From a virus (taxonomy: Duplodnaviria; Heunggongvirae; Uroviricota; Caudoviricetes), in IMG/VR virus record IMGVR_UViG_3300020045_008999, positions 160,001 through 224,000 of that record: a stretch of DNA of 64,000 nt; one strand, 5' to 3'. This document shows positions 1,415 to 29,293 of the stretch, piece by piece (positions within the stretch are counted from its first letter, which is position 1; every line of letters starts with the position of its first letter). The translations under genes and the position numbers were made by a program. The notes below the pieces were generated by a model, which searched no databases, had not been told where the DNA came from, and saw nothing but the letters and a program-made list of their open reading frames with translations.

Positions 1415-1424
1415 GGCTTATATA

Positions 1425-2750: not shown

Positions 2751-2774
2751 GAGATAACGGTGTTTGTCTATATA

Positions 2775-3383: not shown

Positions 3384-3393
3384 AAATTTATTT

Positions 3394-4008: not shown

Positions 4009-4018
4009 ATAGTATATA

Positions 4019-4621
4019 TTATTCTAAACCATCTTCAATTTCTAATATAAGATCATTAAAATTTTCCTCGTTTAATGTAAGGTCATCATTCCAGATTTCA
4101 AAATGTCGTTGGTACTTTAAGATTATTTTAATATGGTCGATATTGTCATTAAATAATTGTGGTAATGAGGCCACATGCGAAAAAACATCTGATATTTCAA
4201 TATCAATATTTCCAGAATATGTAGAAATTAACTTATAGTTTTCGTAGCATATATATATGCCACCCACCATAGTAGGTGAACCCTCTAATGAAGTTAATTC
4301 ATTATAACTACAATTGAAAATACCCCCAACGGTAGTAGGCGATCCCTCTAAGGAAGTCAAAACATTATGATCACAATAAAAATTACCATTAACGGTAACT
4401 GGCGAACCTTCTAATGTAGTTAATTTATTACTAGCACAATCGAATTTACCAGATACTTTATTGAATTTAATCGGCATTTTAGTTAGTCCTATGTTGAATA
4501 AATCCACACTACCATCAACATTGATGGAACCATCCGAGTTTATGATATAGTTTGTGATTCTATATTGAATGCATATTAAATCAATCTGGTCCTTTTCTTC
4601 TTTAGTAATTAAGTTCTTCAT
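4019..4621 (-). CDS. LRR family A protein
   Basis: Conserved caps and 22-aa repeats. Confidence 0.92.
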   Translation of the reverse strand: MKNLITKEEKDQIDLICIQYRITNYIINSDGSINVDGSVDLFNIGLTKMPIKFNKVSGKFDCASNKLTTLEGSPVTVNGNFYCDHNVLTSLEGSPTTVGGIFNCSYNELTSLEGSPTMVGGIYICYENYKLISTYSGNIDIEISDVFSHVASLPQLFNDNIDHIKIILKYQRHFEIWNDDLTLNEENFNDLILEIEDGLE

Positions 4622-4635
4622 AAATTTATTCTTTT

Positions 4636-5487: not shown

Positions 5488-5536
5488 AGTACTATATATT
5501 AGATATTAAAAACTCACATGGAATCATAATATTTAT

Positions 5537-5544
5537 TACATTTG
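5537..5544 (+). promoter_or_regulatory. Bacteroidota-type -7 box, antisense to the LRR array
   Basis: TACATTTG upstream of the ATG at 5583. Confidence 0.5.
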
Positions 5545-5582
5545 TACCCATCATTAATAATATGCTGTAAATATACTCAATT

Positions 5583-6036
5583 ATGTCTATCAGTTTGAAA
5601 ACCATACCCCCAAATTATTCACCGGTTTTATTCGAAATGTTTTACATGGTGCCCGATGAAAAAACGGGGGAAGAATATTATTACTTCAAGGATAAAACGA
5701 TTAGCCGTGATCGCTATACTCCTATATTTCTGAAATGAATTAAAATCAACACATATGAATTTTCATTTTATAGTAGTATAAAAGGGGAATACGGTCGTTT
5801 TTTTTACAATTGAATTTGGATTGGGGTTCAGAACTATCAACGAAATTCAAGGACTTTTTACATACGGTAGATTTATAATGGATAATGATTATGAATTATC
5901 GTTGGACTCATGTAAAAAGATTTATGATTTAAATCTGACCATTGGCTATTATGATAACCAGGGTGTTGAGATAATTGAATATGATCAGATGGCAATACAA
6001 CGCCGCATTACCATCAATGATATTTTATATTCTTAA
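5583..6036 (+). pseudogene. Probable decayed gene inserted antisense in the array
   Basis: ATG 5583; in-frame TGA 5736-5738; same frame stays open to a T8 run (5798-5805), where removing one T joins ORF 5821..6036, which ends QRRITINDILYS. Confidence 0.5.
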
Positions 6037-6038
6037 TA

Positions 6039-6641
6039 TTATTCTAGGCCATCTTTAATTTCATCAAGCAATTCTTGAAAGTTTTCATCATTCAATGATA
6101 GATCGGCATTCCAGATCTCAAAATGTCGCTGATATTTTAAAATTAGTTTAATGTGTACAATATTATCTTGTAATAGTTGTGGTAATTCATCACCTATGCA
6201 TCTAAATTTACCACCCAATTCAATATCTATATCACCGGAATAGGTAGAAATTATCTCACTATGTATGTAATTAATATCCCCACCAATTATGTGGGGAGTC
6301 CCCTCTAATGAAGTCAGCTCATTACCATAACAATGAAAATTACCACCTACCGATGATGGCCCACCTATTAATGAAGTTAATTGATTGCAAGAACAACTAA
6401 AATCACCACCAACCGTAATTGGGGATCCCTCTAATGTAGTCAGTTTATTAACACTACAATTAAAATTACCACTGACATTATTAAATGTTAATGGTAATTT
6501 ATTAAATTTCAGTAATGCTAAATTTACATCACCATTAACATCAATCGATCCATCTGAAGTGATATTATAATTTTCAATATTGAGATTGGTGCATATTGAA
6601 TCAATTCGATCCTTTTCTTCTTTACTAATTAAGTTCTTCAT
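6039..6641 (-). CDS. LRR family A protein
   Basis: Conserved caps and 22-aa repeats. Confidence 0.92.
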   Translation of the reverse strand: MKNLISKEEKDRIDSICTNLNIENYNITSDGSIDVNGDVNLALLKFNKLPLTFNNVSGNFNCSVNKLTTLEGSPITVGGDFSCSCNQLTSLIGGPSSVGGNFHCYGNELTSLEGTPHIIGGDINYIHSEIISTYSGDIDIELGGKFRCIGDELPQLLQDNIVHIKLILKYQRHFEIWNADLSLNDENFQELLDEIKDGLE

Positions 6642-6660
6642 GGTTTAATAGGGTTTCATT

Positions 6661-6703
6661 ATATATAAAATCTAATAACTCAAAGTGGTCAGCTCAGATA
6701 CTA
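6661..6703. repeat. Empty/collapsed form of the intergenic element
   Basis: Left flank (tatataaaatctaataactcaaagtggtcagc, cf. 7864-7898) joined directly to right flank (tcagatacta, cf. 11344-11353). Confidence 0.65.
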
Positions 6704-7306
6704 TTCTAAACCATCTTCTATTTCAGTTATCAAAACCTGGAAGTTTTCTTCGTTTAATGTTAAGTCATCGTTCCAGATCTCAAAATGTCGCTGATATTTT
6801 AAAATTAGTTTAATGTGTACAATATTATCTTGTAATAGTTGTGGTAAGTTGTTACAAATACTCATATTGACAAAACCATTCACTTCAATATCTACATCAC
6901 CTGCATAGGTAGAAGTTAACTTGTTATATGCACAAATTAAATTACCACCAATTGTGTGAGGTGCACCTTCTAATGTAGATAGTTGATTATTATAGCACTG
7001 ATAATTACCACCTACTGATGATGGACCTCCTACTAATGAAGTTAAGTTGTTCCTATAACAATGAAAATTATAGCCCACCGATTGTGGAGCACCTTCTAAT
7101 GTAGATAGTTGATTAGTATCACAACAAAAATTGTCACTTACCGTACCAAACTGCAAGGGTAGTTTTTCTAGTTTCCACCTTACAAATAACATACTTCCAT
7201 CTACATCAATAGACGCATCCGGATTAATGGAATAGTTTTTTATGCGGTATTGCTTACATATTAAATCAATTTGATCCTTTTCTTCTTTACTAATTAAGTT
7301 CTTCAT
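6701..7306 (-). CDS. LRR family A protein
   Basis: Conserved caps and 22-aa repeats. Confidence 0.92.
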   Translation of the reverse strand: MKNLISKEEKDQIDLICKQYRIKNYSINPDASIDVDGSMLFVRWKLEKLPLQFGTVSDNFCCDTNQLSTLEGAPQSVGYNFHCYRNNLTSLVGGPSSVGGNYQCYNNQLSTLEGAPHTIGGNLICAYNKLTSTYAGDVDIEVNGFVNMSICNNLPQLLQDNIVHIKLILKYQRHFEIWNDDLTLNEENFQVLITEIEDGLE

Positions 7307-7318
7307 AAATTCATTCTT

Positions 7319-7858
7319 TTATTCTAATCCCTCTTCTATTTCTAATATCAAATCTTTAAAGTTATCAACATTAAGTGTCAGATCATCATTCCAAATCATA
7401 AAGTGTCTCTGGTACTTCAAGATCAGTTTAATGTGTATAATATTATCTTGTAATAATTGTGGTAATTCATTATTAGACAATTCCACGTCACCCACCAATT
7501 CAATATCTATATCCCCGGAATAGGTAGACGTTAACTTGTTACGTGAACAAATTAAATCACCTACAACCGTATGAGGTGCCCCCTCTAATGAAGTTATTTC
7601 ATTATAATAACAACTAAAATCACCACCAACGGTAATCGGCCCACCCTCTAAGGAAGTTAGGTTGTTCATATAACAATAGAAATCACCACTCACTTTATTA
7701 AATTTTATTGGAAATTCCACTAAATCAACATTGACTATTCTAACATAACCATCTACATCAATAGACCCATCCGGATTAATGCTATACTTCATGATGCTAT
7801 ATTGGGTACATATTGAATCAATTCGATCCTTTTCTTCTTTGGTAATTAAGTTCTTCAT
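7319..7858 (-). CDS. LRR family A protein (short)
   Basis: Conserved caps and 22-aa repeats. Confidence 0.92.
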   Translation of the reverse strand: MKNLITKEEKDRIDSICTQYSIMKYSINPDGSIDVDGYVRIVNVDLVEFPIKFNKVSGDFYCYMNNLTSLEGGPITVGGDFSCYYNEITSLEGAPHTVVGDLICSRNKLTSTYSGDIDIELVGDVELSNNELPQLLQDNIIHIKLILKYQRHFMIWNDDLTLNVDNFKDLILEIEEGLE

Positions 7859-7894
7859 ATGTTATATATAAAAATCTAATAACTCAAAGGGGAC

Positions 7895-8120
7895 CAGCGA
7901 ACCGATAGGTGAGCTGCATATTAAACTAAACTTTAACGTTTTTTAACATTATAAATTTGCATATTAATTTAACTTTTATTAACTTTGTGTTGGCACTTTA
8001 CACTCAAGTACTACACTATAAAGTGCCAACATAAAGATACAATATTATTTTCATATACACAAGAATTTTAACAACGTTGTTAACATTTATATTTCAGCAC
8101 TATGTCCTCGCTTCGCTCGG
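7895..8120. repeat. Intergenic element copy E1
   Basis: Top-strand hairpin 7895-7916; + promoter TTTG 7956 / TAACTTTG 7980-7987; 18-bp inverted repeat 7983-8000 / 8019-8036; - promoter TATCTTTA 8039-8032 with TTG 20 nt upstream; bottom-strand hairpin 8106-8120. Confidence 0.9.
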
Positions 8121-8225
8121 ACTAATCATTATATATATTTTGCCTCTTATAATCTAAACTTTATTTATTCTTTACGTATAGTGTAGTTGTTAACTACTGG
8201 TTTATAAGGTACCACCATGAGGATA

Positions 8226-8963
8226 CTATTCTAAACCATCTTCTATTTCGCTTATCAAAACCTGGAAGTTTTCTTCATTTAAGGTAAGATCATCATTCCA
8301 TATCTCAAAGTATCGCTGATATTTTAAAATTAGCTTAATAACAACGTTGTTATGATCCATATTAGACTTAAGGAGTGGCGGTAATGTACCACCTGGTGAA
8401 AAATGACCACTCACTTCGATATCAATATCACCAGAATAAGTGGATGTCAATTTGTTATCATAACATACAAAATCCCCGCCAATCTTAGCAGGGGAACCAT
8501 CTAAGGAGATTAACTGATTTTCATAACAGTGAAAATTATTACCGACACTAACCGGAGCACCCTTTAACGATGTTAATCTGTTAAAACCACAAACAAAACT
8601 ACCCCCAACTATATGGGGACAACCCTCTAATGAAGTCAAATTATTATGACTAATGATGAAATCACCATCGACACTAACCGGGGCACCCTCTAATGAGGTT
8701 AAAATATTATGACTAATGATGAAATCACCATCGACACTAACCGGGGCACCCTCTAATGAAGTCAAATTATTAAACGAACATGTAAATCTACCAGATATTG
8801 CACCAAATTTCAATGGCAACTTATCTAATTTTTCATTATATAAATTTATACTATCATCTACATCAATAGACCCATCCGGATTAATGGAATAGTTTTTTAT
8901 ACTGTATTGATCACATATTAAATCAATTTGATCCTTTTCTTCTTTAGATATTAAGTTCTTCAT
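8226..8963 (-). CDS. LRR family A protein
   Basis: Conserved caps; recent internal duplication TSLEGAPVSVDGDFIISHN x2. Confidence 0.92.
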   Translation of the reverse strand: MKNLISKEEKDQIDLICDQYSIKNYSINPDGSIDVDDSINLYNEKLDKLPLKFGAISGRFTCSFNNLTSLEGAPVSVDGDFIISHNILTSLEGAPVSVDGDFIISHNNLTSLEGCPHIVGGSFVCGFNRLTSLKGAPVSVGNNFHCYENQLISLDGSPAKIGGDFVCYDNKLTSTYSGDIDIEVSGHFSPGGTLPPLLKSNMDHNNVVIKLILKYQRYFEIWNDDLTLNEENFQVLISEIEDGLE

Positions 8964-8974
8964 AAAGCTATATA

Positions 8975-9577
8975 TTATTCTAGGCCATCTTCAATTTCTA
9001 ATATCAAATCTTTAAAGTTATCTACGTTCAATGTTAAGTCATCATTCCAGATCTCAAAATGTCGCTGATATTTTAAAATTAGTTTAATGTGTCTAATATT
9101 ATCTTGTAATAATTGTGGTAATAGATTACCAGATAAATCCACATCAGCATCCACTTCGATATCAGTATCACCGGAATATGTAGAAGTCAGGTAGTTACGT
9201 AAACAAGTTAAATCACCACCAACCGTATGAGGTGCCCCCTCTAATGAAGTTATTTCATTATAATAACAATAAAAATTACCACCTACATAAGTAGGCGAAC
9301 CTACTAATGATGTCAATTTGTTTTCATAACATTCAAAATATCCACCAACCGTTGTAGGTGCACCATCTAATGAAGTCAGTAGATTTAAACCACAATTAAA
9401 AAACCCGGTAACTTTACCAAATCGCAATGGTATTTTAGTTAATTTTGTATTATGTAAATTAACATCATCATCTACATCAATAGTACCATCCGGGTTAATG
9501 CTATACTTCATGATGCTATATTGGGTGCATATTGAATCAATTCGATCTTTTTCTTCTTTACTAATTAAATTCTTCAT
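8975..9577 (-). CDS. LRR family A protein
   Basis: Conserved caps and 22-aa repeats. Confidence 0.92.
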   Translation of the reverse strand: MKNLISKEEKDRIDSICTQYSIMKYSINPDGTIDVDDDVNLHNTKLTKIPLRFGKVTGFFNCGLNLLTSLDGAPTTVGGYFECYENKLTSLVGSPTYVGGNFYCYYNEITSLEGAPHTVGGDLTCLRNYLTSTYSGDTDIEVDADVDLSGNLLPQLLQDNIRHIKLILKYQRHFEIWNDDLTLNVDNFKDLILEIEDGLE

Positions 9578-9588
9578 AAAACTATATA

Positions 9589-10317
9589 TTATTCTAGGCC
9601 GTCTTCGATTTCTACTATCAAATCCTGGAAGTTATCTTCATTGAGTGTAAGGTCTTCGTTCCAGATAAAGAAATGTCTCTGGTACTTTAAAATTAGTTTA
9701 ATATGGTATATATTGTCTACAAATAGAACAGGCAAGCATTGACTATCGAAGTATCCCTCACCACTTATTTCTATATCTACATCACCGGCATAAGTAGAAG
9801 CCAAATTATTATCTGTACAAATTAAATCACCGCCAATGGTAACCGGAGCACCCTCTAGGGTAGTTAATTGATTTTCGTCACAATAAAAACTACCAACAAC
9901 GTTAACTGGTCCACCCACTAACGTAGTTAATTGATTCCTTGTACATGAAAAGTCACCACCCACCAATTGTGGCACCCCTTCAAAACTAGTTAATTGATTA
10001 TCGTCACAATAAAAATCACCGCCAATGGTAACCGGCCCACCCACTAACGTAGCTAATTGATTATCATCACAATAAAAAAACCCACCCACCGTAGTAGGTG
10101 AGTCCTCTAGTGATGTCAGTTTGTTTGAAACACAATCGAAATTACCAAATACTTTATTAAAATTTAATGGAATTTTTTCCAAACCGGTCCTCCTTAAACT
10201 CACATCACCATCAACATCAATAGATCCATCTGAGTTAATCGTATAATTCTTAATTTTATATTTTATACATATTAAATCGATCTGGTCCTTTTCCTCTTTA
10301 CTAATTAAGTTCTTCAT
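9589..10317 (-). CDS. LRR family A protein
   Basis: Conserved caps; shares an identical 110-bp block with gene 371..1414. Confidence 0.92.
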   Translation of the reverse strand: MKNLISKEEKDQIDLICIKYKIKNYTINSDGSIDVDGDVSLRRTGLEKIPLNFNKVFGNFDCVSNKLTSLEDSPTTVGGFFYCDDNQLATLVGGPVTIGGDFYCDDNQLTSFEGVPQLVGGDFSCTRNQLTTLVGGPVNVVGSFYCDENQLTTLEGAPVTIGGDLICTDNNLASTYAGDVDIEISGEGYFDSQCLPVLFVDNIYHIKLILKYQRHFFIWNEDLTLNEDNFQDLIVEIEDGLE

Positions 10318-10341
10318 ATGTTAGCGGTGTTTGTCTATATA

Positions 10342-11079
10342 TTATTCTAGCCCGTCGTCAATTTCTAATATTAAATCATTGAAGTTATCAATATTCAATG
10401 ATAAGTCATCATTCCAGATCTCAAAGTGTCTCTGGTATTTTAAAATCAATTTGATGTGGTGTATGTTAGCCATAAGCTGATGAGGTAACCTATTATCACC
10501 AAATTCAAGTTCACTATCCTCACTATCCACTTCTATGTCAATATCACCTGAGTATGTAGATGTCAATTTATTCGCACTACAATTAAAATTGCCACTTATA
10601 GTGATAGGCAAACCCACCATTGTAGTCAATATATTAAAATTACAGTTAAAATCACCACCAACAGAAATAGGCGATCCCTCTAATGACGTCAGCCGATTCT
10701 CAATACAATCAAACTGACCACCCACCGTATGAGGTCCACCCACTAAGGTAGATAAATCATTGTCACCGCAATCAAAATCACCGCCCACTGTATGTGGTGC
10801 GCCCTCTAATGAAGTTATTTGATTAAAGTGGCAGTAGAAATCACCACCAACTGTATGAGGAGATCCTTCCAATGAAGTTATTTGATTAAACGAGCATATG
10901 AAATGACCCGAAACTTTACCAAATTTCAATGGCAATTGTATTAATTTTTTACTCGAAATAAACACATCCCCATCAACATCAACAGATCCATTCGAATTAA
11001 TCGAATAATTTTCAATTTGATAATCTTTACATATTAAATCGATCTGGTCCTTTTCACCTTTGCTAATTAAATTTTTCAT
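10342..11079 (-). CDS. LRR family A protein
   Basis: Conserved caps and 22-aa repeats. Confidence 0.92.
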   Translation of the reverse strand: MKNLISKGEKDQIDLICKDYQIENYSINSNGSVDVDGDVFISSKKLIQLPLKFGKVSGHFICSFNQITSLEGSPHTVGGDFYCHFNQITSLEGAPHTVGGDFDCGDNDLSTLVGGPHTVGGQFDCIENRLTSLEGSPISVGGDFNCNFNILTTMVGLPITISGNFNCSANKLTSTYSGDIDIEVDSEDSELEFGDNRLPHQLMANIHHIKLILKYQRHFEIWNDDLSLNIDNFNDLILEIDDGLE

Positions 11080-11114
11080 AAGCTATATATAAAAATTAGA
11101 TCCATCAAAGCGGC

Positions 11115-11350
11115 CAGCGAACCGATAGGTGAGCTGCATATTATATTAAACTTTAACAGTTTTAATTTGTAAATGTTAGATATATTCATTAACTTTGTGT
11201 TGGTACCTTACACTCAAGTACTACACTATAAAGTGCCAATATAAAGATACAAAATATAGTAATACAAAGCAAGTCTTTAATGTAAAAGTTATGAACGATG
11301 TTAACGAAGTGTCTTATCAACGATGTTATAAACAATCGCTCACTCAGACA
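11115..11350. repeat. Intergenic element copy E2
   Basis: Hairpin 11115-11136 identical to E1; TTTG 11166 / TAACTTTG 11190-11197; inverted repeat 11193-11210 / 11229-11246; opposing promoter; gttatcaac-like repeats; truncated right end cgctcact 11337-11344. Confidence 0.9.
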
Positions 11351-11962
11351 CTACTGTAGCCCCTCTTCTATTTCAGAAATCAAATTCTGGAAGTTTTCTT
11401 CATTTAATGTAAGATCATCATTCCATATAAAGAAATACCTCTGGTACTTTAATATTAGTTTAGTAACAACGTTATTATGTTCCATATTAGACTTAAGGAG
11501 TGGCGGTAATGTATCACCTGGACAAAAAAATCCTAAAACTTCAATATCCACATCACCAGAATAAGTTGAGGTTAATTTGTTACCATTGCACTCAAAATCA
11601 CCACCAACAGTAACCGGGCCACCCACAAGTGAAGTCAATTTATTTCCATGACAGTGGTAATCACCACCAACAGTATGTGGACCACCATCTAATGAAGTCA
11701 ACTGATTTTGACCACATCTAAAATCACCACCAACAGTATGTGGACCGTCCTCTAATGTAGTCAAGAAGTTCGATGTACAAGAAAATCTACCAGAAATCTT
11801 ACCAAATTTCAATGGGAACTTAACTAAGTTCTCACTATATAAATTCACATTGCCATCCACATCAATCGATCCATCTGAGTTGATTGTATAATTCTCGATG
11901 CCGTATTGATCACATATTAAATCGATCTGGTCCTTTTCACCTTTGCTAATTAAATTTTTCAT
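11351..11962 (-). CDS. LRR family A protein
   Basis: Conserved caps and 22-aa repeats. Confidence 0.92.
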   Translation of the reverse strand: MKNLISKGEKDQIDLICDQYGIENYTINSDGSIDVDGNVNLYSENLVKFPLKFGKISGRFSCTSNFLTTLEDGPHTVGGDFRCGQNQLTSLDGGPHTVGGDYHCHGNKLTSLVGGPVTVGGDFECNGNKLTSTYSGDVDIEVLGFFCPGDTLPPLLKSNMEHNNVVTKLILKYQRYFFIWNDDLTLNEENFQNLISEIEEGLQ

Positions 11963-11972
11963 AAGCTATATA

Positions 11973-12515
11973 TTATTCTAATCCATCTTCAATTTCAGCT
12001 ATCAAATCAGCAAAGTTATCTGCATTCAAAGTTAAGTCATCGTTCCAGATTTCAAAATGCCTCTGGAACTTCAAGATTAGTTTAATATGATCCAGGTTAT
12101 CCAATAATTGCTGTGGTAGTAGACTGTTGTCGGCACATCTTACAATTCCGGATACGTCAATATCCGTATCACCTGTGTAAGTAGAAGTTAAATTATTATA
12201 ACTACAATAGAAATCACCACCAACCGTATGTGGGGATCCCTCTAATGAAGTTAAAACATTGTACCCACATCTAAAATCACCACCAACTGTAGCCGGGCAA
12301 CCGTCTAATGAAGTCAAGTAATTACCAAGGCAACTGAAATTACCAGTCACTTTTCCAAATTTCAAAGGTATAACAGATATTTCTTCTTCGTGTAATGCTA
12401 CATCACCATTCACATCAACTGAACCATCTGAGTTGATCGAATAGTTCTCGATGTCGTATTGTTTACATATTAAATCAATTTGATCCTTTTCTTCTTTAGA
12501 TATTAAATTCTTCAT
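11973..12515 (-). CDS. LRR family A protein (short)
   Basis: Conserved caps and 22-aa repeats. Confidence 0.92.
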   Translation of the reverse strand: MKNLISKEEKDQIDLICKQYDIENYSINSDGSVDVNGDVALHEEEISVIPLKFGKVTGNFSCLGNYLTSLDGCPATVGGDFRCGYNVLTSLEGSPHTVGGDFYCSYNNLTSTYTGDTDIDVSGIVRCADNSLLPQQLLDNLDHIKLILKFQRHFEIWNDDLTLNADNFADLIAEIEDGLE

Positions 12516-12526
12516 AAAACTATATA

Positions 12527-13135
12527 TTATTTCAACCCCTCTTCAATTTCTGCTATCAAATTCAGGAAGTTTTCCTCATTCAAAGATAGATCATCGTTCC
12601 AGATTTCAAAATGTCTCTGGTACTTCAAAATTAGTTTAATATGATCCATATGATCAATAACTAGCTGAGGTAACTGTAAAAATGTGTCACCTGAGTATAA
12701 ATCGCCAGCGAATTCAATATCAATATCCCCAGAATAGGTAGACGTAATGTTATTATTAGTACATTTTAAATCACCACCAATAATACTTGGACTACATTCC
12801 AACGTAGTTAAATTGTTATAACTACAATAAAAATCACCAACTACCGTATGTGGTCCACCCTCCAATGAAGTTAATTCATTATAATAACAATTAAAATCAC
12901 CACCAATTATAGTAGGCGATCCCACCAATGTAGTCAAATGATTAAACGAACATGAGAAATGACCAGAAACTTTACCAAATTTTAATGGTAATTGTATTAA
13001 TTTTTTCCTCGAAATAAACACATCCCCATCAACATCAATAGATCCATCCGAGTTAATTTTATATTTCTTTATATTGTATAGATAGCATATCGAATCGATA
13101 CGATCCTTTTCTTCTTTGTTAATTAAGTTCTTCAT
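12527..13135 (-). CDS. LRR family A protein
   Basis: Conserved caps and 22-aa repeats. Confidence 0.92.
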   Translation of the reverse strand: MKNLINKEEKDRIDSICYLYNIKKYKINSDGSIDVDGDVFISRKKLIQLPLKFGKVSGHFSCSFNHLTTLVGSPTIIGGDFNCYYNELTSLEGGPHTVVGDFYCSYNNLTTLECSPSIIGGDLKCTNNNITSTYSGDIDIEFAGDLYSGDTFLQLPQLVIDHMDHIKLILKYQRHFEIWNDDLSLNEENFLNLIAEIEEGLK

Positions 13136-13146
13136 GTAGCTATATA

Positions 13147-13707
13147 TTATTCTAATCCCTCTTTAATTTCTGCTATCAAATCATTGAAGTTTTCTTCGTT
13201 CAATGTTAGATCCTCATTCCAGATCATAAATGGTCGCTGGTACTTCAGAATCAATTTAATATGACCCAGGTTATCCACCAATTGCTGAGGTAGGTGGTTA
13301 GAATTGACACTTGTGACATCGGAAATGCATCTTATAATACCGGATACCTCAATATCAGTATCACCAGCGTAAGTAGAAGTTAGAACATTATACGTGATAT
13401 CAAAATAACCCCCAACATATGCCGGGCATCCCACCAATGATGTCAGCATATTATCCTCACAATCAAAATCACCACCAACATTCTTAGGGGAACCTACCAG
13501 TGATTTCAAGCCATTCGAATCACATCGGAAAACACCAGATACATTATTGAATTTTACTGGAATTACGATTAAGCCGCTATCCGCTAAATTGACATCCCCC
13601 TTTACATCAATCGATCCATCCGAGTTAATCGAATAATTCTTGATGCCAAATTCTTCACATATCAAATCAATTTGATCCTTTTCTTCTTTACTAATTAAGT
13701 TCTTCAT
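13147..13707 (-). CDS. LRR family A protein (short)
   Basis: Conserved caps and 22-aa repeats. Confidence 0.92.
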   Translation of the reverse strand: MKNLISKEEKDQIDLICEEFGIKNYSINSDGSIDVKGDVNLADSGLIVIPVKFNNVSGVFRCDSNGLKSLVGSPKNVGGDFDCEDNMLTSLVGCPAYVGGYFDITYNVLTSTYAGDTDIEVSGIIRCISDVTSVNSNHLPQQLVDNLGHIKLILKYQRPFMIWNEDLTLNEENFNDLIAEIKEGLE

Positions 13708-13717
13708 GGCCTATATA

Positions 13718-14569
13718 TTATTCTAACCCCTCGTTAATTTCTGCTATCAAATCATTGAAATTTTCTTCGTTCAGACTAAGATCTTCATTCCAGATCATAA
13801 AATGCCGCTGGTACTTTAAAATTAATACTATGTGTTCTATATTTTCATTAAACAGTTGAGGCAGTGTACTATTTGTAAAGCATACGTCAGCCCTCAACTC
13901 AATGTCTATATCACCAGAATATGTAGATGTCAACAGGTTTTTTTTACAATCGAAATAACCACAAGTAGCAGTTGGGGCACCCTCTAAAGATGTCAATTTA
14001 TTATGACCACATAGCAAATCACCGCCAACCCACTCAGGACCCCCCACTAATGAAGTCAACTGATTGTGACTACAATAAAAATTACCTTTCACTGTGGTAG
14101 GTGAGCCATGTAATGTAGTCAACATATTAAAGAAGCAGCTATAGCCTTTTCCGATCGTAGTAGGCCCATCCACTAATGAAGTCAAACGATTATCATCACA
14201 GTTAAAATGCCCACCAACCTCAACCGGACCCCCCACTAATGAAGTCAAATAATTATGACCACAGTCAAAATATCCACTCACCGTAGTAGGACAACCCACT
14301 AATGAAGTCAATTGATTTTTGACACAATCGAAACCACCCACCGTAGTAGGACAACCCACTAATGAAGTCAATTGATTATCATTACAAATAAAATTCCCAG
14401 ATACCGTATTAAATTTTATTGGCAACTCTTTTAATTTTTGCTCATGTAAGTTTACATCACCATCAACATCAATCGACCCATCCGAGTTGATAGTATAATT
14501 TTCGATTCGGTGGTCATTACATATCTCATCGATACGATCCTTTTCTTCTTTGGTAATTAAATTCTTCAT
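13718..14569 (-). CDS. LRR family A protein (long)
   Basis: Conserved caps; near-identical tandem NQLTSLVGCPTTV units. Confidence 0.92.
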   Translation of the reverse strand: MKNLITKEEKDRIDEICNDHRIENYTINSDGSIDVDGDVNLHEQKLKELPIKFNTVSGNFICNDNQLTSLVGCPTTVGGFDCVKNQLTSLVGCPTTVSGYFDCGHNYLTSLVGGPVEVGGHFNCDDNRLTSLVDGPTTIGKGYSCFFNMLTTLHGSPTTVKGNFYCSHNQLTSLVGGPEWVGGDLLCGHNKLTSLEGAPTATCGYFDCKKNLLTSTYSGDIDIELRADVCFTNSTLPQLFNENIEHIVLILKYQRHFMIWNEDLSLNEENFNDLIAEINEGLE

Positions 14570-14579
14570 GGTCTATATA

Positions 14580-15120
14580 TTATTCTAAGCCGTCTTTAAT
14601 ATCTGCAATCAGATTGTTAAAGTTTTCTTCATTCAATGTTAGATCATCATTCCAGATCATGAAATGCCGCTGGTACTTTAAAATTAATAAGATGTGCTCT
14701 ATATTATCATTAAACAGTTGAGGTAACGGATTACTTACAATATTAACATTCTCACCTATTTCAATATCAATATCCATTAAATAGGTGGTGGTTATATTAT
14801 TAAAGGAACAATCGAAACTACCCAAAATAGTAACCGGACATCCATTCAATGAAGTTAGACTATTATTGTTACAATAAAAATACCCACCCACCGTAGTAGG
14901 TGAGCCCTCCAGAGATGTCAATTTGTTTAAAACACAATTGAAATTACCAGACACAATGTTGAATCTTACCGGAAATTTAGTTATTTTTTTTATCAAATAA
15001 ATCTACATTGCCGTGCACGTCAATTGATCCATCTGAGTTAATTGAATAGTTTTTAATATTTTCATTAGAGCATATTCTATCGATACGATCCTTTTCTTCT
15101 TTGCTTATTAAGTTCTTCAT
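14580..15120 (-). pseudogene. LRR family A gene frameshifted in an A8 homopolymer
   Basis: MKNLISKEEKDRID starts at 15120; span is 541 nt (3n+1); A8 run (T8 at 14984-14991) restores the frame into ORF 14580..14996 if A7. Confidence 0.85.
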
Positions 15121-15131
15121 ATAAATATTTA

Positions 15132-15734
15132 CTATTCCAACCCTTCTTCAATTTCCGATATCAAATCCTTGAAGTTTTTTTTATTTAAGGTAAGATCATC
15201 ATTCCAAATATAAAAATGTCGCTGGTACTTTAAGATCAATTTGATGTGATTTATATTTGTGATAAGTGATTTATATATTTTTTTACCTGGGTAAAAATCG
15301 CCACCAAAATCAATATCGATATCACCAGAATACGTAGAACGGATAGGTGTATCCTCAAAAAATAAATCACCACCAATGGTATGAGGTGCTCCCTCTAATG
15401 AAGTTAATTCAATATTACCACTGCAAACAAAATCACCATTAACCACATTCGGGGCACCATTTAGTGATGTTAGTCTATTATCACTACACTTAAAATTACC
15501 ACCCACCGTAGTAGGACCACCCTCTAATGATGTCAATAGATTAAAATTACATCCAAAATCACCAGTTATCTTACCGAACTTCAATGGCAGCTTAACTATA
15601 TCTATATTAAATATACTGACATCACCATCCACATCAACTGAACCATCCGAGTTGATCGAATAATTCACGATTCCGTATTGATCACATATTAAATCAATAC
15701 GATCCTTTTCCTCTTTACTAATTAAGTTCTTCAT
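15132..15734 (-). CDS. LRR family A protein
   Basis: ORF track 15132..15764; family-conserved start at 15734. Confidence 0.92.
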   Translation of the reverse strand: MKNLISKEEKDRIDLICDQYGIVNYSINSDGSVDVDGDVSIFNIDIVKLPLKFGKITGDFGCNFNLLTSLEGGPTTVGGNFKCSDNRLTSLNGAPNVVNGDFVCSGNIELTSLEGAPHTIGGDLFFEDTPIRSTYSGDIDIDFGGDFYPGKKIYKSLITNINHIKLILKYQRHFYIWNDDLTLNKKNFKDLISEIEEGLE

Positions 15735-15851
15735 ATATCTATATATAAAATCCAAATCACTCAAAGGTGGCCGACTTACGTAGTTATAATCGCAGTGAGC
15801 GGCATAATTCTACCCATCTTGTTCCAATCTTTATGTTAGCGTAGGTATGAG

Positions 15852-16419
15852 TTATTCAAGTATTTGTGAAATTATCCACGTTCTATACAATTTTGCTAGA
15901 TCATACGATTCCGGATTTGCTAATTGGTCCATGCGTAATCCCAGCCTAAATAATTCGATAATCGTATCTATATCATTATTGATCCCGGAAAAACATCCAT
16001 CAATGTTGGTGGTAATTCCGTCAAATGAATGAATGAATGTGAAAATCAATATCACAAAAATAATTACCACCAACTTTACTTGGACCGAATTCCAATGATG
16101 TTAGTTTATTTTCACAGCAATAAAAACACTCACCGATAATACTTGGACCGAATTCCAATGATGTTAATTCATTTTCACAACACAAAAAATCACCAGTAAC
16201 TTCAATAGGACAACCGTATAATGTACTGAGCTTATTTTGTACACATATAAAGTCACCAATAACCTTATTAAACCGCAATGGTAGCTCAGTTAAATTTTGA
16301 CCACATAGATCAACCCCATCATAAGCATCAATTGTACCATCGTCATTAATGTCGTAGCCGGAAATTGAATACTTCTGACAGATATCCTCGATTTTATTAT
16401 TTCGTTCAGAATTATCCAT
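15852..16419 (-). pseudogene. Diverged LRR gene (family B tail) frameshifted at a (CATT)4 microsatellite
   Basis: ORF 16021..16419 and ORF 15852..16073 join in frame if one 4-bp unit at 16024-16039 is removed (568-4=564 nt); restored C-terminus LYRTWIISQILE. Confidence 0.8.
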
Positions 16420-16465
16420 AATTGTATTTTTCCTAAGTATTGAATATAAAAAGAAACTCGTAATG

Positions 16466-17206
16466 CTATTTATTTAATTGTTTAGTGTATTTTTTCTTTA
16501 TCATTTGTTTTGTTAGCTTTTCCTTATCACCATCTTCAACAATTCTAATTATTATACTATCGATACCAACGTCCTTGATCATCTTATCTAAGGTAACAGA
16601 ATGACCAGATTTTAAATTGTTTAGTAAGCCATCATTTTTACTAGTATATACTATAAATTTTTTATTTACCTGATTGGTTATGACAACAGAATAACGCTTG
16701 CTTTGTGTGAATAAATGAGATGGATATAGGTATAACTTTTCATGCAATTGTTTTAATGACTTATATCCCAAAACATCTTTCATAATATTGATCGACTTAT
16801 GTACTTCGGTATCCTCTGCTCCTTTGATAAATAGATTGTATCTTTCGTTGGGATTATTATTATCGTTAAATTCAATATTGGTTAGATCCTGGACCATAGA
16901 ATATTCTCTTATAAGCCTTTCTTCATCAGCGCGATCAGATGACAACATTTTGACAATTAGTCGACTACCAGAGTCCAGAATTCCCTTTATTAGTTTATTC
17001 TTTCTTACATTTATATTAGTTGCCTTTTGTAGATCTAATATGTGGAATGCAATCCTCCCCTTTATATTACTAGTTGATCCAATATAAAAATCATTTATCA
17101 TATACACCCCAGATGTATACGTATCTTCAATATCCGCAAACCATTTTATGTTATCAGAAACATAATTTATCAATAGTTTTTTCTTATCAACCTCAGTTTT
17201 TGTCAT
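16466..17206 (-). CDS. GIY-YIG family endonuclease
   Basis: SGVYMINDFYIGSTSNIKGRIAFH motif plus downstream E and N (EERLIREY...LTN). Confidence 0.75.
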   Translation of the reverse strand: MTKTEVDKKKLLINYVSDNIKWFADIEDTYTSGVYMINDFYIGSTSNIKGRIAFHILDLQKATNINVRKNKLIKGILDSGSRLIVKMLSSDRADEERLIREYSMVQDLTNIEFNDNNNPNERYNLFIKGAEDTEVHKSINIMKDVLGYKSLKQLHEKLYLYPSHLFTQSKRYSVVITNQVNKKFIVYTSKNDGLLNNLKSGHSVTLDKMIKDVGIDSIIIRIVEDGDKEKLTKQMIKKKYTKQLNK

Positions 17207-17485
17207 TTGTATATAAATTAATCAATTATATACAAATGATATGTGAAAGTTTAGTGATGTGTAAAATAAATAATCAAATAAATACTAGTGAATATTTAAC
17301 ATATTAAATTTGTATAAGAACTTTAAATTTCTTAACTTTGTGTTGGCACCTTATACTCTACTACTAGACTATAGTGTGCCAACATAAAGATACTAATTAA
17401 TACAATACAAAACAAGACTCATAGACAAAAGTTATCAACAATCGTTCACTGCGTTTATAAATACGTTAGCGACACCACTCTGATA

Positions 17486-18088
17486 CTATTCTAATCCGTC
17501 TTCAATTTCTGCTATCAAATTCTGGAAGTTTTCCTCATTTAAAGTTAAGTCATCATTCCAGATGAAGAAATGTCTTTGGTACTTCAAGATCAATTTAATG
17601 TGATGTACATTATTCTTCAATTGCTGTGGTAGGATGTTTAAGCTACATGTTACAATTCCGGATACGTCAATATCCGTATCACCTGAGTAAGTAGAAGTTA
17701 ATTTATTATTACTACAATATAAATTACTACCAACCGATTGTGGTGCCCCCACTAATGAAGTTAAACCATTGTACCCACATCTGAAATTCCCACCAACAGA
17801 TGTAGGTGATCCTTCCAATGACGTCAACATATTAATACTACAATAAAAATCATCACCAACTGTATGAGGGGATCCCTCTAAGGTAGTTAATATGTTCATT
17901 GAACAAGAAAATTTACCGGTCACATTACCAAATCGCAATGGTAATTGTTTTAAGCGTTTATGTTCTAAATCAACATCTCCCTCAACGTCAATGGATCCAT
18001 CAGCATTAATAGTGTAATGCCTAATATGAGATCTTCTACAAATCGAATCAATACGGTTCTTTTCCTCTATACTAATTAAGTTTTTCAT
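17486..18088 (-). CDS. LRR family A protein
   Basis: Conserved caps and 22-aa repeats. Confidence 0.92.
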   Translation of the reverse strand: MKNLISIEEKNRIDSICRRSHIRHYTINADGSIDVEGDVDLEHKRLKQLPLRFGNVTGKFSCSMNILTTLEGSPHTVGDDFYCSINMLTSLEGSPTSVGGNFRCGYNGLTSLVGAPQSVGSNLYCSNNKLTSTYSGDTDIDVSGIVTCSLNILPQQLKNNVHHIKLILKYQRHFFIWNDDLTLNEENFQNLIAEIEDGLE

Positions 18089-18211
18089 AAGCTATATATA
18101 CTATTATTATTTTTTCAATTTTTACCAAAACAGCGAATGGAAATATAATATATACTATGTAGGAATGATGAAGTTTATTAAATATTCTAGATTAACAACT
18201 CTATCACGCTC

Positions 18212-18445
18212 AGTAGATTATCGGATACCAGCTTTTATCCCAGGGATAATGATCCAGCTGCCCATATAAAGATCGAAAAGTGATAGAACAATCGAAAATG
18301 TTAAATATACCAAACCCAAGACTACACATCGAATAGATACAACAGTGTTATACCTATCGAAGAATATATGTTAATTCATAGTAGATTATCGGAAACCAGC
18401 TTTTATCCCAGGGATAATGATCCAGCTGCCCATATAAAGATCGAA
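18212..18445. repeat. 66-bp direct repeat x2 with internal palindrome
   Basis: 18212-18277 and 18380-18445 differ at one base; contain TTATCCC-A-GGGATAA nested in CAGCT...AGCTG. Confidence 0.9.
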
Positions 18446-18741
18446 CCGCAATTAATTATTCAAGATAATATACCATTCAAATATCAACGGATGTCATAAT
18501 ACAAATTAAAACATATTTAAATACCCAACCTGGTGAAATGTCAAAAAAAATGACATACATACCGGGAATTACCAGTTAGAACAATCCTAATGATTTAAAT
18601 ATGAATATAATTGAGCTATTTAAATACAGTGGATTTAAGCCACTTAAATTTTAAAATGGTGTCCTAGTATTAAAAAAATATAATAAAGCCTTATATTAGG
18701 CAACATTGAAGGGATTTAATGAATTTACTTATATAAGACAG

Positions 18742-18830
18742 CAGCGAACGAAGTGAGCTGTATAATTATACAAAATTTTAACAACGTTGTTATCAACAAT
18801 CGCTCACTACGTTTATAACTACATTAGCGA
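18742..18830. repeat. Intergenic element copy E4 lacking the promoter/IR core
   Basis: Left hairpin cagcgaacgaagtgagctg 18742-18760 followed closely by right-side ttaacaacgttgttatcaacaatcgctcact. Confidence 0.8.
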
Positions 18831-18844
18831 CCACCATCTAGATA

Positions 18845-19585
18845 TTATTCTAATCCTTCTTCAATTTCGGATATCAAATCCTTGAAGTTTTCTTCATTCA
18901 ATGTCAGATCATCATTCCATATAAAGAAATATCTCTGGTACTTAAAGATCATTCTGAAATCAACCATGTGTTCACCATCACCGTCTTTACCAAATTGTAC
19001 CGGCATGTACTTTGTGTCATAATATAAAGTGCCCTTTAATTCAATATCATCAGCACAATACGTGGATGATATTGAATTACCTTCACAATGATAACCACCT
19101 CCAATCATAGTAGGTGATCCTATTAAGTTACTTAGTTGGTTATCGGCACAACAAAAATTTCCATTAACACTATTTGGACCACCTTCCAATGAAGTTAAAA
19201 TGTTCCTATGACAATAAAAATCCACATTAATGATATCCGGTGATCCCTTTAACGAAGTTAATTGGTTATAAGAACAAAAGAAACTATTTCGGACTAACTT
19301 AGGGCCCCAGTCTAAATTAACCAAGTTATTAGACTGTCCGTAAAATGTCCCACCAACCTCATGCGGACATCCTTTCAATGAAGTTAACTGATTTCCATTG
19401 CAATAAAAATCACCAGATACTTTATTAAAGCTCAATGGTAAATCAGTTAATTCCTTTTTGGTTAAATTAACATCACCATCAACGTCAATAGTCCCATCTG
19501 AGTTTATCGAGTAATTAAATATATTATATTTCTTACAAATTGAATCAATACGATCCTTTTCCTCTTTAGATATTAAATTCTTCAC
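18845..19585 (-). CDS. LRR family A protein (first of array, GTG start)
   Basis: Conserved caps and 22-aa repeats. Confidence 0.9.
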   Translation of the reverse strand: MKNLISKEEKDRIDSICKKYNIFNYSINSDGTIDVDGDVNLTKKELTDLPLSFNKVSGDFYCNGNQLTSLKGCPHEVGGTFYGQSNNLVNLDWGPKLVRNSFFCSYNQLTSLKGSPDIINVDFYCHRNILTSLEGGPNSVNGNFCCADNQLSNLIGSPTMIGGGYHCEGNSISSTYCADDIELKGTLYYDTKYMPVQFGKDGDGEHMVDFRMIFKYQRYFFIWNDDLTLNEENFKDLISEIEEGLE

Positions 19586-19636: not shown

Positions 19637-19874
19637 CAGCGAACGCAGTGAGCTGCATATTAACATAGGTAAATTTTAACGTAGATTTTAACAGTTTTAA
19701 TTTGTATATGTCCTCAACTTTTACTACCTTTATGTTGGCACACTATAGTGTAGTACCAGAGTATAAGGTGCCAATATAAAGATACAAAATATAGTAATAC
19801 AAGTCAAGTGTTTTCTGTAAAAGTTATCAACGATGTTATCAACGATGTTATAAACAATCGCTCACTGCGTTCGC
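19637..19874. repeat. Intergenic element copy E5 with inverted core
   Basis: Perfect 15-bp terminal inverted repeat GCGAACGCAGTGAGC (19639-19653) / GCTCACTGCGTTCGC (19860-19874); IR arms 19728-19741 / 19768-19781; three 12-bp gttatcaacgat-type repeats 19823-19858. Confidence 0.9.
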
Positions 19875-19909: not shown

Positions 19910-20596
19910 TTAATTTAATGGAATTTTCAACCAGGTCATGTTATTATACATTTCCAATTCACCGGATCCACCAGTGTACTCATTTACTAAATGATGAAGT
20001 GCCTTGGAATTGATCTGGATACGCATATAGACAGTATTGAACTCTGTGAAAGTTTCTTTGGTTGATGCCCACACAAATCCCTTAACGAATTCCTCCAGGT
20101 AAATAGTTGGAATTCTAGGTACTTCTAACTCATATTTATTCACCTGGAATCCATAATCCATCAAAGACCAAACCAAATGGAATGAAGTGATCAAACAAGT
20201 TCGGATATTCACATCCCGGACACCCTTCTTAATGACATATCCAGAATTGATAGCAGCACTTATATCACTCATAATAGGATCCGTAGTTTTCAAATGCAAA
20301 TTATATAACTTAGTAGTTATTTTAATATGACCACATGCCCATATCGATCCAAGGTAATAGGCCCGGGTAGAATCCATCTTATCAATTCGAAAGTATTCGG
20401 AATCCAAGCTTATAGTGCGGGAATCAGAAACAGTCTTACACTGAATCGAACAGTATTTTCTAGGCCTGGTCAATTCAAATCTATTGTCATATTTAAATGA
20501 CTTTTTACAATTGGAACAGATGCAATCCACCCATAATAATTCTTTATTTTTGACCGGGCGGCCTGGGCGTTTCTTATTACTCATAGTTGAATTCAT
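19910..20596 (-). CDS. Degenerate LAGLIDADG-like protein with N-terminal AT-hook-like motif and Cys4 zinc finger
   Basis: KRPGRPVK; CSNC...YCSIQC; AYYLGSIWACGHI and FVKGFVWAS resemble the two LAGLIDADG helices without the acidic residues. Confidence 0.55.
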   Translation of the reverse strand: MNSTMSNKKRPGRPVKNKELLWVDCICSNCKKSFKYDNRFELTRPRKYCSIQCKTVSDSRTISLDSEYFRIDKMDSTRAYYLGSIWACGHIKITTKLYNLHLKTTDPIMSDISAAINSGYVIKKGVRDVNIRTCLITSFHLVWSLMDYGFQVNKYELEVPRIPTIYLEEFVKGFVWASTKETFTEFNTVYMRIQINSKALHHLVNEYTGGSGELEMYNNMTWLKIPLN

Positions 20597-26357: not shown

Positions 26358-28095
26358 TCTGGTATACTGATTTTAAATACTATATTGAAATCATAAAGAC
26401 GCGATTAATTAACGTCCATCGCTACAATTTCGACTTGTGGTAAAAAGCAAGGTGTTTCGGATGAGAAACAGTAATTAAAAATGAATTTATGGCAAATATC
26501 TATGATTTACACGACCATCCTTGCGTTAAAATTGAAAACATAATCCATATTACAATTTCGGCAACTAAAACAATGTGTGGTAAAGAGTGGATTTATTCGC
26601 CAACCATCGAAAGATTTAAAAGAACAAAAGTAAAAACATTAAAGTGGGTAAGTCCGGATAAAATTAATTGTCAAAAATGTATTGATGCTTATGGAAATGA
26701 AAAAGCAGTTGATTTTTAGAAAAAAAGCAGTTGATTTTTAAAACGATGGTTGTGACAATATCGCCTAACTATCTTATGTTAGTGGTATTAAAAAAATAAA
26801 TTATGAAAATATATCCAGTTGAAATACAAATTGGTCAGAGAGTTATTAAAAGTAATAGCTTTCAATCTTTTAGAGTTATTGACAAAATAAAAGAAACACC
26901 AAAAACAATAACATTTCTCGTAAAATATTATAAAGGTGATATACGTTGTCATGGTGATTTTATTGAAAAAGAAGTAACATTTAGAAAATCTACAATAGTT
27001 GAAAGTAGAGAAGATTTTATCGGGACTAAATTTAACCAATTATATAAAATAAAACCCGAAAGACTAAAAGATGTTATTAACCGAGGATTTGAATTGTATA
27101 GAGTAAAGGCAAAACAAACATATAGTTGGGGTGATGATGGTTTGAGAATTGGTGATTATATGTTTGCAATGTTTAATGGTATCAACTATGAGACCGAAAG
27201 TATATTAGATGATGGTACCGTTAATGTAATACCACCATCAAAAAATTCAGACAAACCTAAATTATCTGGTTGGAGTAATAATAATGGCGGATTCGAGGAT
27301 TTTTATGAAAAGATAGATATGAATATTATTTTAAACACTAATGAACCGTGTCCCACAACGGTGGGAAGCGATAGTGACAAGGATGTTAAATTCACTCTTA
27401 ATACTAAAGAGGTTAGAAAATATTTAGAAAGTAAAGGATTTAAAGGCCTTACTTTTTTCCAAGGTGGTAAGTTTATTTATGCGTTTATATCTATAAGAGC
27501 AAACGTAAATCACCAATGGAAAGAGAAAGATTATTCCACCTTTAATGAGAATGATAAAAATAGACTGTCTTTCTTAAATCAAAGCGATTGTAGTTATGAT
27601 GAATTCAAATACTATATTGAAAACCTAAACTAGGGATTCCTTAATTATACTATGTTAGTGGTATTTTAAAAAAATAAATTATGCTGAATAAATTTAAAAT
27701 TGAAATAATCGATAATCAAGTTGGCAATTTTTTCCAAATCAATCTATATAAGTGGAAGAAAGTTAATAAGTGGTTTCAAATAGCGAAATTTGACTGGTGT
27801 ATTGAGTTTAGACACATTTTGGGTAAAAATTATAGGTGTCCAGAGATTTCACAAAAACGAATAACCATTGAACAGTATTTCGAAAGAGAGGTCCAAGACG
27901 AATTAAATCGCGATGGCATAGAAGAAGTACATAGAATTATAATTGCTGCATCATAATGAGGCAGGTTTTTTAAATATACACTTAAATACAACACTAAATA
28001 CAAAGAGAGATTGGGTAAACCGGTCTCTCTTTTTCCGTTACTGATCATTTTCGATTCAATTTTGGGATTTTCCCCTATATAAAAACGGTTATTTG

Positions 28096-28127
28096 TTTGG
28101 TAATTTGGTTCAAATACACTACATTTG
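28096..28127 (+). promoter_or_regulatory. Bacteroidota sigma promoter
   Basis: TTTG-N20-TACATTTG; implies true start of ORF 28093 is the ATG at 28150. Confidence 0.7.
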
Positions 28128-28603
28128 TTTTATACTAAAAACCTCTATTATGGAAACGTTAGCATTTTTTAAGAAGTATTGTAAGTTAAAGGGACTTGAA
28201 ACCAAGTATGCATTTGGACATATCCATGGTGAGACTAAGAGTTTGGTTTTTATGAATGGCGAAACTACGGAACATTTGGAATACTTGGGAACCAATGTAC
28301 GGGATGGTATTTTGTATCGGGTATCACCGGCTACTTGTGGCTATGGTGAGGACGGGAGTAACAAGTGTACTATAGGCAAACCTAACCCGGCCTGTATGGG
28401 TGGTATTTATTCCAAAAATAAATGTGCTATTTATTTTCATACTCCGATTGATTTGGAAACGTTTCGATATGATTTGAATATGGAGGAGTTTCAATTACTG
28501 AGTCTCAACCATGAGTAGGAAGTAGTCGAAGAATTGTAGAAAATGGGGTATATTATCAAAATCGGAAGCGCATTGAATCAATTTACCGAATATTTGTTTA
28601 ATC

Positions 28604-29002
28604 ATGGACGTAGGGGAAATATATAATTTTTGCATCAAACACCATATTAGTAATTACACCATTAATTCAGATGGGTTTATAGATGTGATCGGGTCAGTTA
28701 TTTTAGGTACAGAAGATGGAATAGAAGATGGGCACCTACCAGATGGAATTCGTTTTGGGTATGTTAGTGAGAGTTTCAACTGTACGTGGGCTTCCCTGAC
28801 CTCACTTAATGGATGTCCTTTGGTGTTGGGTGGTATTTTTTGTTGTTACTATGGATTTATGGATTGGACGGATGAGAACTTTGATGTTCTGTATCGTTAT
28901 AACTATTCCCAGCTGAGAATTAATAGTAATTTCAAGTTGGGATATGATAGGTATTGTAAAATAAGGAAGCGTAGGGATATTATTAATGAATTGCTCCGGT
29001 GA
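28604..29002 (+). CDS. LRR family B protein
   Basis: ISNYTINSDGFIDV N-cap, degenerate repeat, tail RKRRDIINELLR. Confidence 0.85.
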   Translation: MDVGEIYNFCIKHHISNYTINSDGFIDVIGSVILGTEDGIEDGHLPDGIRFGYVSESFNCTWASLTSLNGCPLVLGGIFCCYYGFMDWTDENFDVLYRYNYSQLRINSNFKLGYDRYCKIRKRRDIINELLR

Positions 29003-29006
29003 TATA

Positions 29007-29038
29007 TTTGGAAAAATCGAATAAAATTATTACATTTG
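29007..29038 (+). promoter_or_regulatory. Bacteroidota sigma promoter
   Basis: TTTG-N20-TACATTTG. Confidence 0.7.
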
Positions 29039-29293
29039 AATACTAATCGTAAATTAAATACAAATGAAAACAGAAACTTCGAAAAATAATGATGCAAATC
29101 CGGATCGCTCAATGGATTCAGATCAAGCATTTATTGACATTAACTACACATTTAATGCAATTGCAAATCAAGACAAGAGTAATAGTTGGAAACTGGATGA
29201 ACTTAGACTAATACTAAATCAGTTACAGAAGACTCAATTTGAAAACGGCATAAAAGCTGGATTTAGAAAAGGGATTAAACTACTTACGGACCA

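Follow-up and report, generated by a model that had tools for sequence, protein, structure and literature searches.

An intergenic module at the upstream edge of an LRR gene array in a giant phage carries a 26-nt core that seems to read backwards between its inverted-repeat arms, which raises two questions: has this core truly been inverted, and, if so, was it flipped by a reversible, recombinase-driven switch or by a single mutational event at a hairpin? The module lies in a 64,000-nucleotide stretch of DNA, hereafter the window, corresponding to bases 160,001-224,000 of a single 596,785-bp virus record (a metagenome assembly from IMG/VR; CheckV 98% complete, 31.9% G+C). The first-pass annotation of the window had described the core as one that is or was invertible, with consequences for the 5' leaders of two transcripts, and had named a one-off, hairpin-mediated micro-inversion as the alternative.

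A tandem array of ~200-aa genes on the minus strand, containing 21-residue LRR-like repeats, spans positions 1-19,585 of the window; its genes are mostly ~10 bp apart, and a ~240-bp intergenic module is found at a few breaks. Using an nhmmer profile built from the four window copies (E1, E2, E3 and E5), we detected five module copies in the whole genome, all in the plus orientation: E1 (7895-8120), E2 (11115-11348), E3 (17280-17475), E5 (19637-19873, E 2.9e-57) and a diverged copy, E0, ~2.2 kb left of the window (G000:C1:157764-157947). E5, which is co-linear with E1, E2 and E3, sits at the upstream edge of the array, between an LRR-family gene of 246 aa (18845-19585, minus strand) and an upstream gene (19910-20596, minus strand) with a weak match to phrog_4645 (annotated endonuclease, E 3.2e-06). 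Every module is centred on a 14-bp inverted repeat around a 26-nt core, shorter in E0, and the arm pair is confined to the modules, with no other occurrence in the genome; the pattern TTGGCAC-N20-32-GTGCCAA is found three times in the window versus 0.00 expected from shuffles. In E5, left arm, core and right arm together occupy 19728-19781 (CTTTATGTTGGCAC / ACTATAGTGTAGTACCAGAGTATAAG / GTGCCAATATAAAG), and the corresponding elements lie at 7983-8036 in E1, 11193-11246 in E2 and 17336-17389 in E3. The E0 arms read TCGACAC/GTGTCAA instead of TTGGCAC/GTGCCAA, with one compensatory change in both arms (G-C to A-T) and one mismatch, and the gapped scores of its 21-nt core differ too little between the two directions to fix an orientation. 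A partial core-like stretch at 8176-8228 (TATAGTGTAGT...TATAAGGTACCA), 150 bp right of E1 and at the 3' end of the gene at 8226-8963, scores at E 0.2-0.46 on both strands in the profile search, with ambiguous orientation, and may be the remnant of another module.

As a separate feature of the array, nuclease-like genes adjoin two of the four window modules: the gene upstream of E5 and a GIY-YIG-like open reading frame at 16466-17206 (minus strand; PF01541 at 22.2 bits, slightly below the cut-off). NUMOD4 open reading frames likewise adjoin LRR genes in two related contigs (L006 and L007), and together these genes suggest freestanding homing-endonuclease traffic in the array.

The orientation of the core was compared across six copies, namely E1, E2, E3, E5 and two from related phage (L004 and L009), with E0 left out of the count. 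The E5 core (19742-19767) is inverted relative to all five others, matching them at 20-25 of 26 positions when reversed versus 15-17 when read forward: 23/26 versus 17/26 for the E3 core (17350-17375), 21/26 versus 16/26 for E2, 20/26 versus 16/26 for E1, 23/26 versus 15/26 for L004 and 25/26 versus 16/26 for L009. Copy pairs that do not include E5 match better forward (19-25/26) than reversed (15-17/26). The core is itself quasi-palindromic, with 16-18 of its 26 positions identical to its own reverse complement, which is why the forward match of E5 is not lower and why the orientation signal resides only in the asymmetric positions. Ten core positions are informative about orientation; eight of these are flipped in E5 and one is canonical, and the other five copies are canonical at 7-9 and flipped at 0-2 of them. 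The 33-nt flanks outside each E5 arm match the other copies at 18-29/33 forward versus 12-16/33 reversed and, with the flanks matching forward and the core reversed, the inversion is confined to the arms and core. In the 43-nt stretch that starts with the left-arm A and extends to GTGCCAA, E5 and L009 show 11 differences in forward alignment and one after reverse complementation. Since five of the six copies are canonical, including L009 with its unflipped E5-type core, the single flipped copy, E5, represents the derived state. As judged from these comparisons, the inversion is confirmed as real, the core having been inverted at least once, and the observations from which the first-pass annotation had started all stand: the 23/26 match of the reversed core to E3, its resemblance to E1 and E2, and the unchanged orientation outside the 14-bp arms.

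The arms that delimit the flipped core coincide with parts of two facing promoter-like sites. On the plus strand, canonical modules carry TTTG (ATTG in L004)-N20-TAACTTTG, ending within the left arm, and on the minus strand a mirror site, CTTG (CTTA in L004)-N20-TATCTTTA, ending within the right arm; the 20-nt spacing is constant in all six copies, whereas the spacer sequence varies. In E5 the rightward site is TTTG-N20-TACCTTTA (19701-19732, plus strand), with a -7 box inside the left arm where other copies have TAACTTTG, and the leftward site is CTTG-N20-TATCTTTA (19777-19808, minus strand), with its -7 box in the right arm. The leftward site faces the next LRR gene, at 18845-19585, and transcription from the rightward one would enter the preceding gene in antisense. 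We take TTTG-N19-20-TAnnTTTG to be the Bacteroidota primary-sigma promoter (-33 TTTG and -7 TAnnTTTG, spaced by 19-21 nt), following the consensus of Bayley et al. 2000. This pattern occurs at 21 sites genome-wide, of which 12 have the commonest spacing, N20, lies 16-40 nt before start codons and is ~15-fold enriched upstream of genes relative to coding sequence (examples fall within 28093-28150, 29002-29064 and 51594-51868 of the window). A second motif, TATATATA, is ~40-fold enriched in upstream regions, and the two enrichments together point to a Bacteroidota-type host promoter set and a likely phage late promoter. TTGACA-type promoters show no enrichment ahead of genes in this phage. The palindrome could also be read as a sigma-70 site (TTGGCA-N16-TAnACT), a reading we rejected because gene-upstream regions show no enrichment for such sites either.

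Given that the -7 boxes sit in the arms, the arms would constitute the -7 and start regions of two facing predicted promoters. At neither site does the -33 or the -7 box reach into the core, each being placed in an arm or further out; the core itself is promoterless, and it would form the first ~26-30 transcribed nucleotides of both predicted transcripts. A flip of a core at the start of both predicted transcripts would swap their two 5' leaders, and we infer such a swap for E5, in agreement with the earlier expectation that an inversion of the core would alter both leaders. The rightward, antisense -7 box of E5 was probably also degraded, from TAACTTTG to TACCTTTA, by arm homogenisation and an A-to-C change. 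When the leftward leader is folded as RNA, with either the native core or one flipped in silico, no consistent orientation-dependent pairing appears, and an Rfam search of the centre found no family, returning only a chance miRNA-hairpin match of 25 bits versus a 90-bit threshold. Beside the right promoter of E5 lies a run of 12-nt tandem repeats (19823-19858; GTTATCAACGAT twice, then GTTATAAACAAT), whose counterpart at L004:4107-4166 consists of five units of ACGTAGTTATAA; these repeats look iteron-like.

How the flip came about can be approached through the arms themselves. The arms match at 13 of their 14 bp, with a perfect part of 7-9 bp. The left arm reads CTTTGTGTTGG(C/T)AC in all five other copies, and E5 (19728-19741) is the sole copy with A, not G, at the fifth base. 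In the five canonical copies this base is G (CTTTGTG...) and the mirror position of the right arm is T (...CATAAAG); the E5 left-arm A is therefore the exact mirror of the right-arm allele, and the E5 right arm (19768-19781) is unchanged, being of the usual right-arm type and identical to those of E2 and L004. A conservative crossover swaps both alleles or neither, so that a change in the left arm only amounts to a non-reciprocal pattern, and a reciprocal model would need extra mutations to account for the E5 arms; the argument is a modest one, resting on one base. Arm homogenisation fits the left-arm G-to-A change and requires an extra step at a second arm site, the right-arm C/T position, where an L009-like ancestor would need one additional C-to-T change or a conversion from an E2-type flank. 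In DNA folding, three of the four window copies (E1, E3 and E5) form hairpins of -11.1 to -15.7 kcal/mol (z -3.1 to -7.0), and the E2 hairpin is weaker because of an arm mismatch.

We consider it likely, with a probability of roughly 70%, that the E5 flip arose by a replication or repair template switch at the quasi-palindrome, a rare event that became fixed at this copy, and not by an enzyme-driven reversible switch. In such an event the E5 core and inner arms would have been replaced by their own reverse complement at a hairpin-forming quasi-palindrome: the nascent strand would copy one arm, pair with the complementary arm of either strand or of a paralogous module, copy the core backwards and return in the other arm. 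A switch entering outside base 5 of the left arm and returning within GTGCCAA on the right would generate the observed pattern. Template switching is known to produce arm homogenisation and inversion of the inverted-repeat spacer together (PMC8604942), and short template-switch mutations have been described in related work (PMC8794818, PMC5453318). The micro-inversion that the first-pass annotation had offered as its alternative thus turns out to fit the evidence best, given the shared orientation of five of six copies, the non-reciprocal arms and the unlinked recombinase discussed below.

The two related-phage copies bear on where the template may have come from. A protein search with the LRR gene adjoining E5 returned many family members, and among the 14 contigs that were read the module is present in two only, L004 and L009, both from JGI metagenome 3300057098. 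Orthologs of both E3 and the gene at 17486-18088 are present in L004 (85.7% over 859 bp), where the core matches that of E3 at 24/26 in the same orientation. The L009 module (776-949) is the ortholog of E2 by flanks and synteny (81% over 238 bp; synteny with 11973-12515), yet its core is of the E5 type, matching the E5 reverse complement at 25/26 and canonical relative to its own flanks, which indicates that the locus undergoes copy-choice or gene-conversion events. The E1 and E2 cores are 25/26 identical despite their differing flanks and the E5 right flank is E2-like (29/33); cores thus appear, from these comparisons, to have been exchanged among modules by gene conversion. Furthermore, once the flip is allowed for, the E5 centre (19728-19781) and that of L009 (L009:823-897) agree at 42 of 43 positions, with E5-L009 flanks at 71% and module flanks at 71-81% overall. 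A centre so much better conserved than its flanks is expected to be functional or under constraint, in which case the flip might matter, and the centre might serve as an operator for the two facing promoters or as a leader element.

Neither relative module is a positional ortholog of E5: the gene at 19910-20596 has no homolog among 5.8 billion proteins, and the ortholog of the E5-neighbouring LRR gene in a third contig, L002 (78%), has no module upstream. The arm pattern TTGGCAC-N26-GTGCCAAYATAAAG returned no matches in IMG/VR and none in JGI metagenome contigs, a blastn comparison of the intergenic region with 50,697 phage records gave no match, and an LRR-alignment search of viral and metagenome contigs yielded no confirmed relatives. 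In GTDB genomes the same arm pattern matched twice, in Bacteroides bouchesdurhonensis and B. faecichinchillae (L013:4375-4421 and L014:2691-2737), and we rejected both matches as unrelated, since their centre is different and they share one intergenic spacer of a housekeeping region, in which NAD synthase and phosphatase genes converge and GTGCCA/TGGCAC hairpins abound. They are probably due to chance, with about two expected in 596 Gb, though both fall in Bacteroides.

The exchange of cores invites a reading in which ectopic gene conversion from a different module, whose core was of an ancestral E2/L009 type, supplied the E5 centre in inverted register, after a strand end in the palindromic arm misannealed during recombination-dependent replication. 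In its favour, the E5 core is closest to that of L009, the E2 ortholog, the E5 right flank is E2-like, and the near-identical E1 and E2 cores appear to have moved between different flanks. This scenario would nevertheless need the same microhomology step, which makes it a variant of the template-switch explanation more than a true alternative, and as an account in its own right we hold it to be unlikely. Indeed, an in-place switch and an ectopic copy in inverted register are indistinguishable here, and the mosaic of an E2-like right flank and an L009-like core makes an ectopic template plausible.

We regard as equally unlikely a recurrent, enzyme-independent flip-flop, in which frequent hairpin flipping would maintain a mixed phage population and the reference would merely represent the majority state. 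Such flipping would have the same structural basis as the template switch, namely the hairpin folds and the flipped core, and the diverged E0 may also be flipped, on a weak score difference; small hairpin-bounded inversions are moreover known to recur homoplastically in plastid genomes (PMC12371153, PMC5492656). Against it, the E3 ortholog in L004 keeps the E3 orientation and the canonical copies all agree despite 15-30% flank divergence, both of which argue for a low flip rate.

A programmed mini-inverton, in which the core is turned back and forth by the tyrosine recombinase of the phage or by an invertase of the host, so that the leaders are swapped and expression of the adjacent LRR cassette becomes phase-variable, would require a suitable enzyme, in most invertons one encoded close by. 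The window contains no invertase gene, as had been noted at first pass, and the whole phage encodes a single recombinase-family gene, a tyrosine recombinase at G000:C1:108069-108698 (L001:1330-1959, plus strand), ~69 kb from E5 and ~52 kb left of the window. The protein (183-209 aa) comprises the catalytic domain only, with visible R, HxxR, H and Y motifs, and matches PF00589 (37.6 bits) and the phrog_216 'integrase' family (E 4.6e-22); it gave no match to PDB sequences. The genome has no match to PF00239, PF07508, PF01548 or PF01797, which represent serine, large serine, IS110-type and Y1 enzymes, and arm-like sites were found genome-wide only in the modules, with none near the tyrosine recombinase. 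The genome-wide search that the first-pass annotation had proposed therefore does return a recombinase, albeit a short one that is unlinked to the modules, and no serine, large-serine or IS110-type enzyme; a host enzyme might still supply the activity.

That an inverted repeat bounds the flipped piece exactly, and that the genome encodes one tyrosine recombinase with the R, HxxR, H and Y motifs, would both suit such an inverton. For known recombinases, two-site synapsis on one DNA molecule takes ~80 bp for Cre/lox and 150-1000 bp for characterised invertible promoters, and the flipped piece, at 26 bp (54 bp with its arms), is far below this spacing. The promoter type is Bacteroidota-like, in a phylum rich in invertons, and a 57-bp inversion in B. 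thetaiotaomicron has been molecularly confirmed, its invertase not having been identified (PMC10028968); small size alone is thus not decisive. The flipped piece nonetheless carries no promoter, the recombinase is distant and without arm-like sequence nearby, the arm change is non-reciprocal, and five of the six copies share one orientation, all of which leave a programmed inverton very improbable. As to the two orientations coexisting, as a reversible inverton would have it, copies and relatives split five canonical to one flipped, and the gene neighbouring E5 is carried by a single contig in the protein search. We attach just as little credence to a broader version, in which the 54-bp palindrome serves two facing promoters as a leader cassette built to be flipped, whether by the phage recombinase, a host invertase or a tuned hairpin mechanism. 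If true, a 5' RNA element would switch between the sense transcript of the LRR cassette and the antisense transcript of the upstream gene, and the phage population would be a mix of expression states for a variable LRR binder repertoire. Of the original proposal that the core is or was invertible, what survives is that it has been inverted at least once; a recombinase-driven phase-variation switch finds no support in a 26-bp, promoterless segment with no linked invertase and non-reciprocal arms. Least credible of all is an assembly or sequencing artefact or a run of chance point substitutions: hairpins can yield chimeric reads and the record is a metagenome assembly, but the arms (14 bp, 7-9 bp perfect) are shorter than usual assembler k-mers, so that k-mers spanning arm and flank should fix the core orientation, eight of the ten orientation-informative positions carry the exact complementary mirror base, and matches of 23-25/26 are observed where the best unrelated 26-mer to the flipped E3 core on both strands of the whole 596,785-bp genome reaches 18/26.

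Among known systems, E5 most resembles the inversion of inverted-repeat spacers by template switching, as formulated in the Ripley quasi-palindrome model and described since (PMC8604942, PMC8794818, PMC5453318): the spacer between short imperfect inverted repeats gives way to its reverse complement, what looks like a group of substitutions has a single cause, one arm becomes a better mirror of the other, and no enzyme or specific site is needed. Unlike the published cases, which were read from orthologs on a species tree, the E5 event emerges from a comparison of paralogous promoter modules within a 597-kb phage, its spacer is long (26 nt) and itself quasi-palindromic, and the mechanism is inferred from the copies compared. 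Aligners misread such spacer inversions as substitution clusters. Hairpin-loop inversions in plastid genomes (PMC12371153; PMC5492656, PMC9887819) are similar in having a stem of ~10-20 bp and a loop of a few to tens of nucleotides that occurs in either orientation without a recombinase. The plastid inversions recur often among close relatives, whereas here only one of six copies is flipped.

Classical invertons include the B. fragilis polysaccharide promoters flipped by Mpi, E. coli fimS and Salmonella hin. Like these, E5 has inverted repeats bounding a segment found in two orientations, a Bacteroidota-type host and a position beside variable genes resembling those for surface or binding proteins; unlike them, its segment is 26 bp long and promoterless, with no linked recombinase found and a non-reciprocal arm change. 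If it did act as a switch, no known inverton would be smaller, and a giant phage would have a new means of modulating how its repertoire of binder genes is expressed. In practice, a centre that is flipped between the short inverted repeats of a repeat family should be called phase-variable only on read-level evidence. Intragenic invertons have also been reported (PMC10028968).

The module also recalls, in architecture, recombination sites such as loxP and FRT, with ~14-bp inverted arms around an asymmetric centre that gives direction. In loxP and FRT sites, 13-bp inverted arms surround an asymmetric 8-bp spacer that sets the direction of the site. Those systems rely on an identical spacer of 6-8 bp, whereas the module spacer is 26 nt long and only 19-25/26 identical between copies; the cores differ at 1-7 positions, which would block strand exchange of the loxP/FRT type, and all flanks and genes are co-linear, so that no module-to-module inversion has happened. 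The module itself may merit more attention than the flip, given that its two promoters face each other and that its flanks have diverged far more than its centre. The E5 flip, for its part, adds a further case to a known class of event, the inversion of a spacer between inverted repeats, here within a conserved promoter palindrome of a giant phage of Bacteroidota type.
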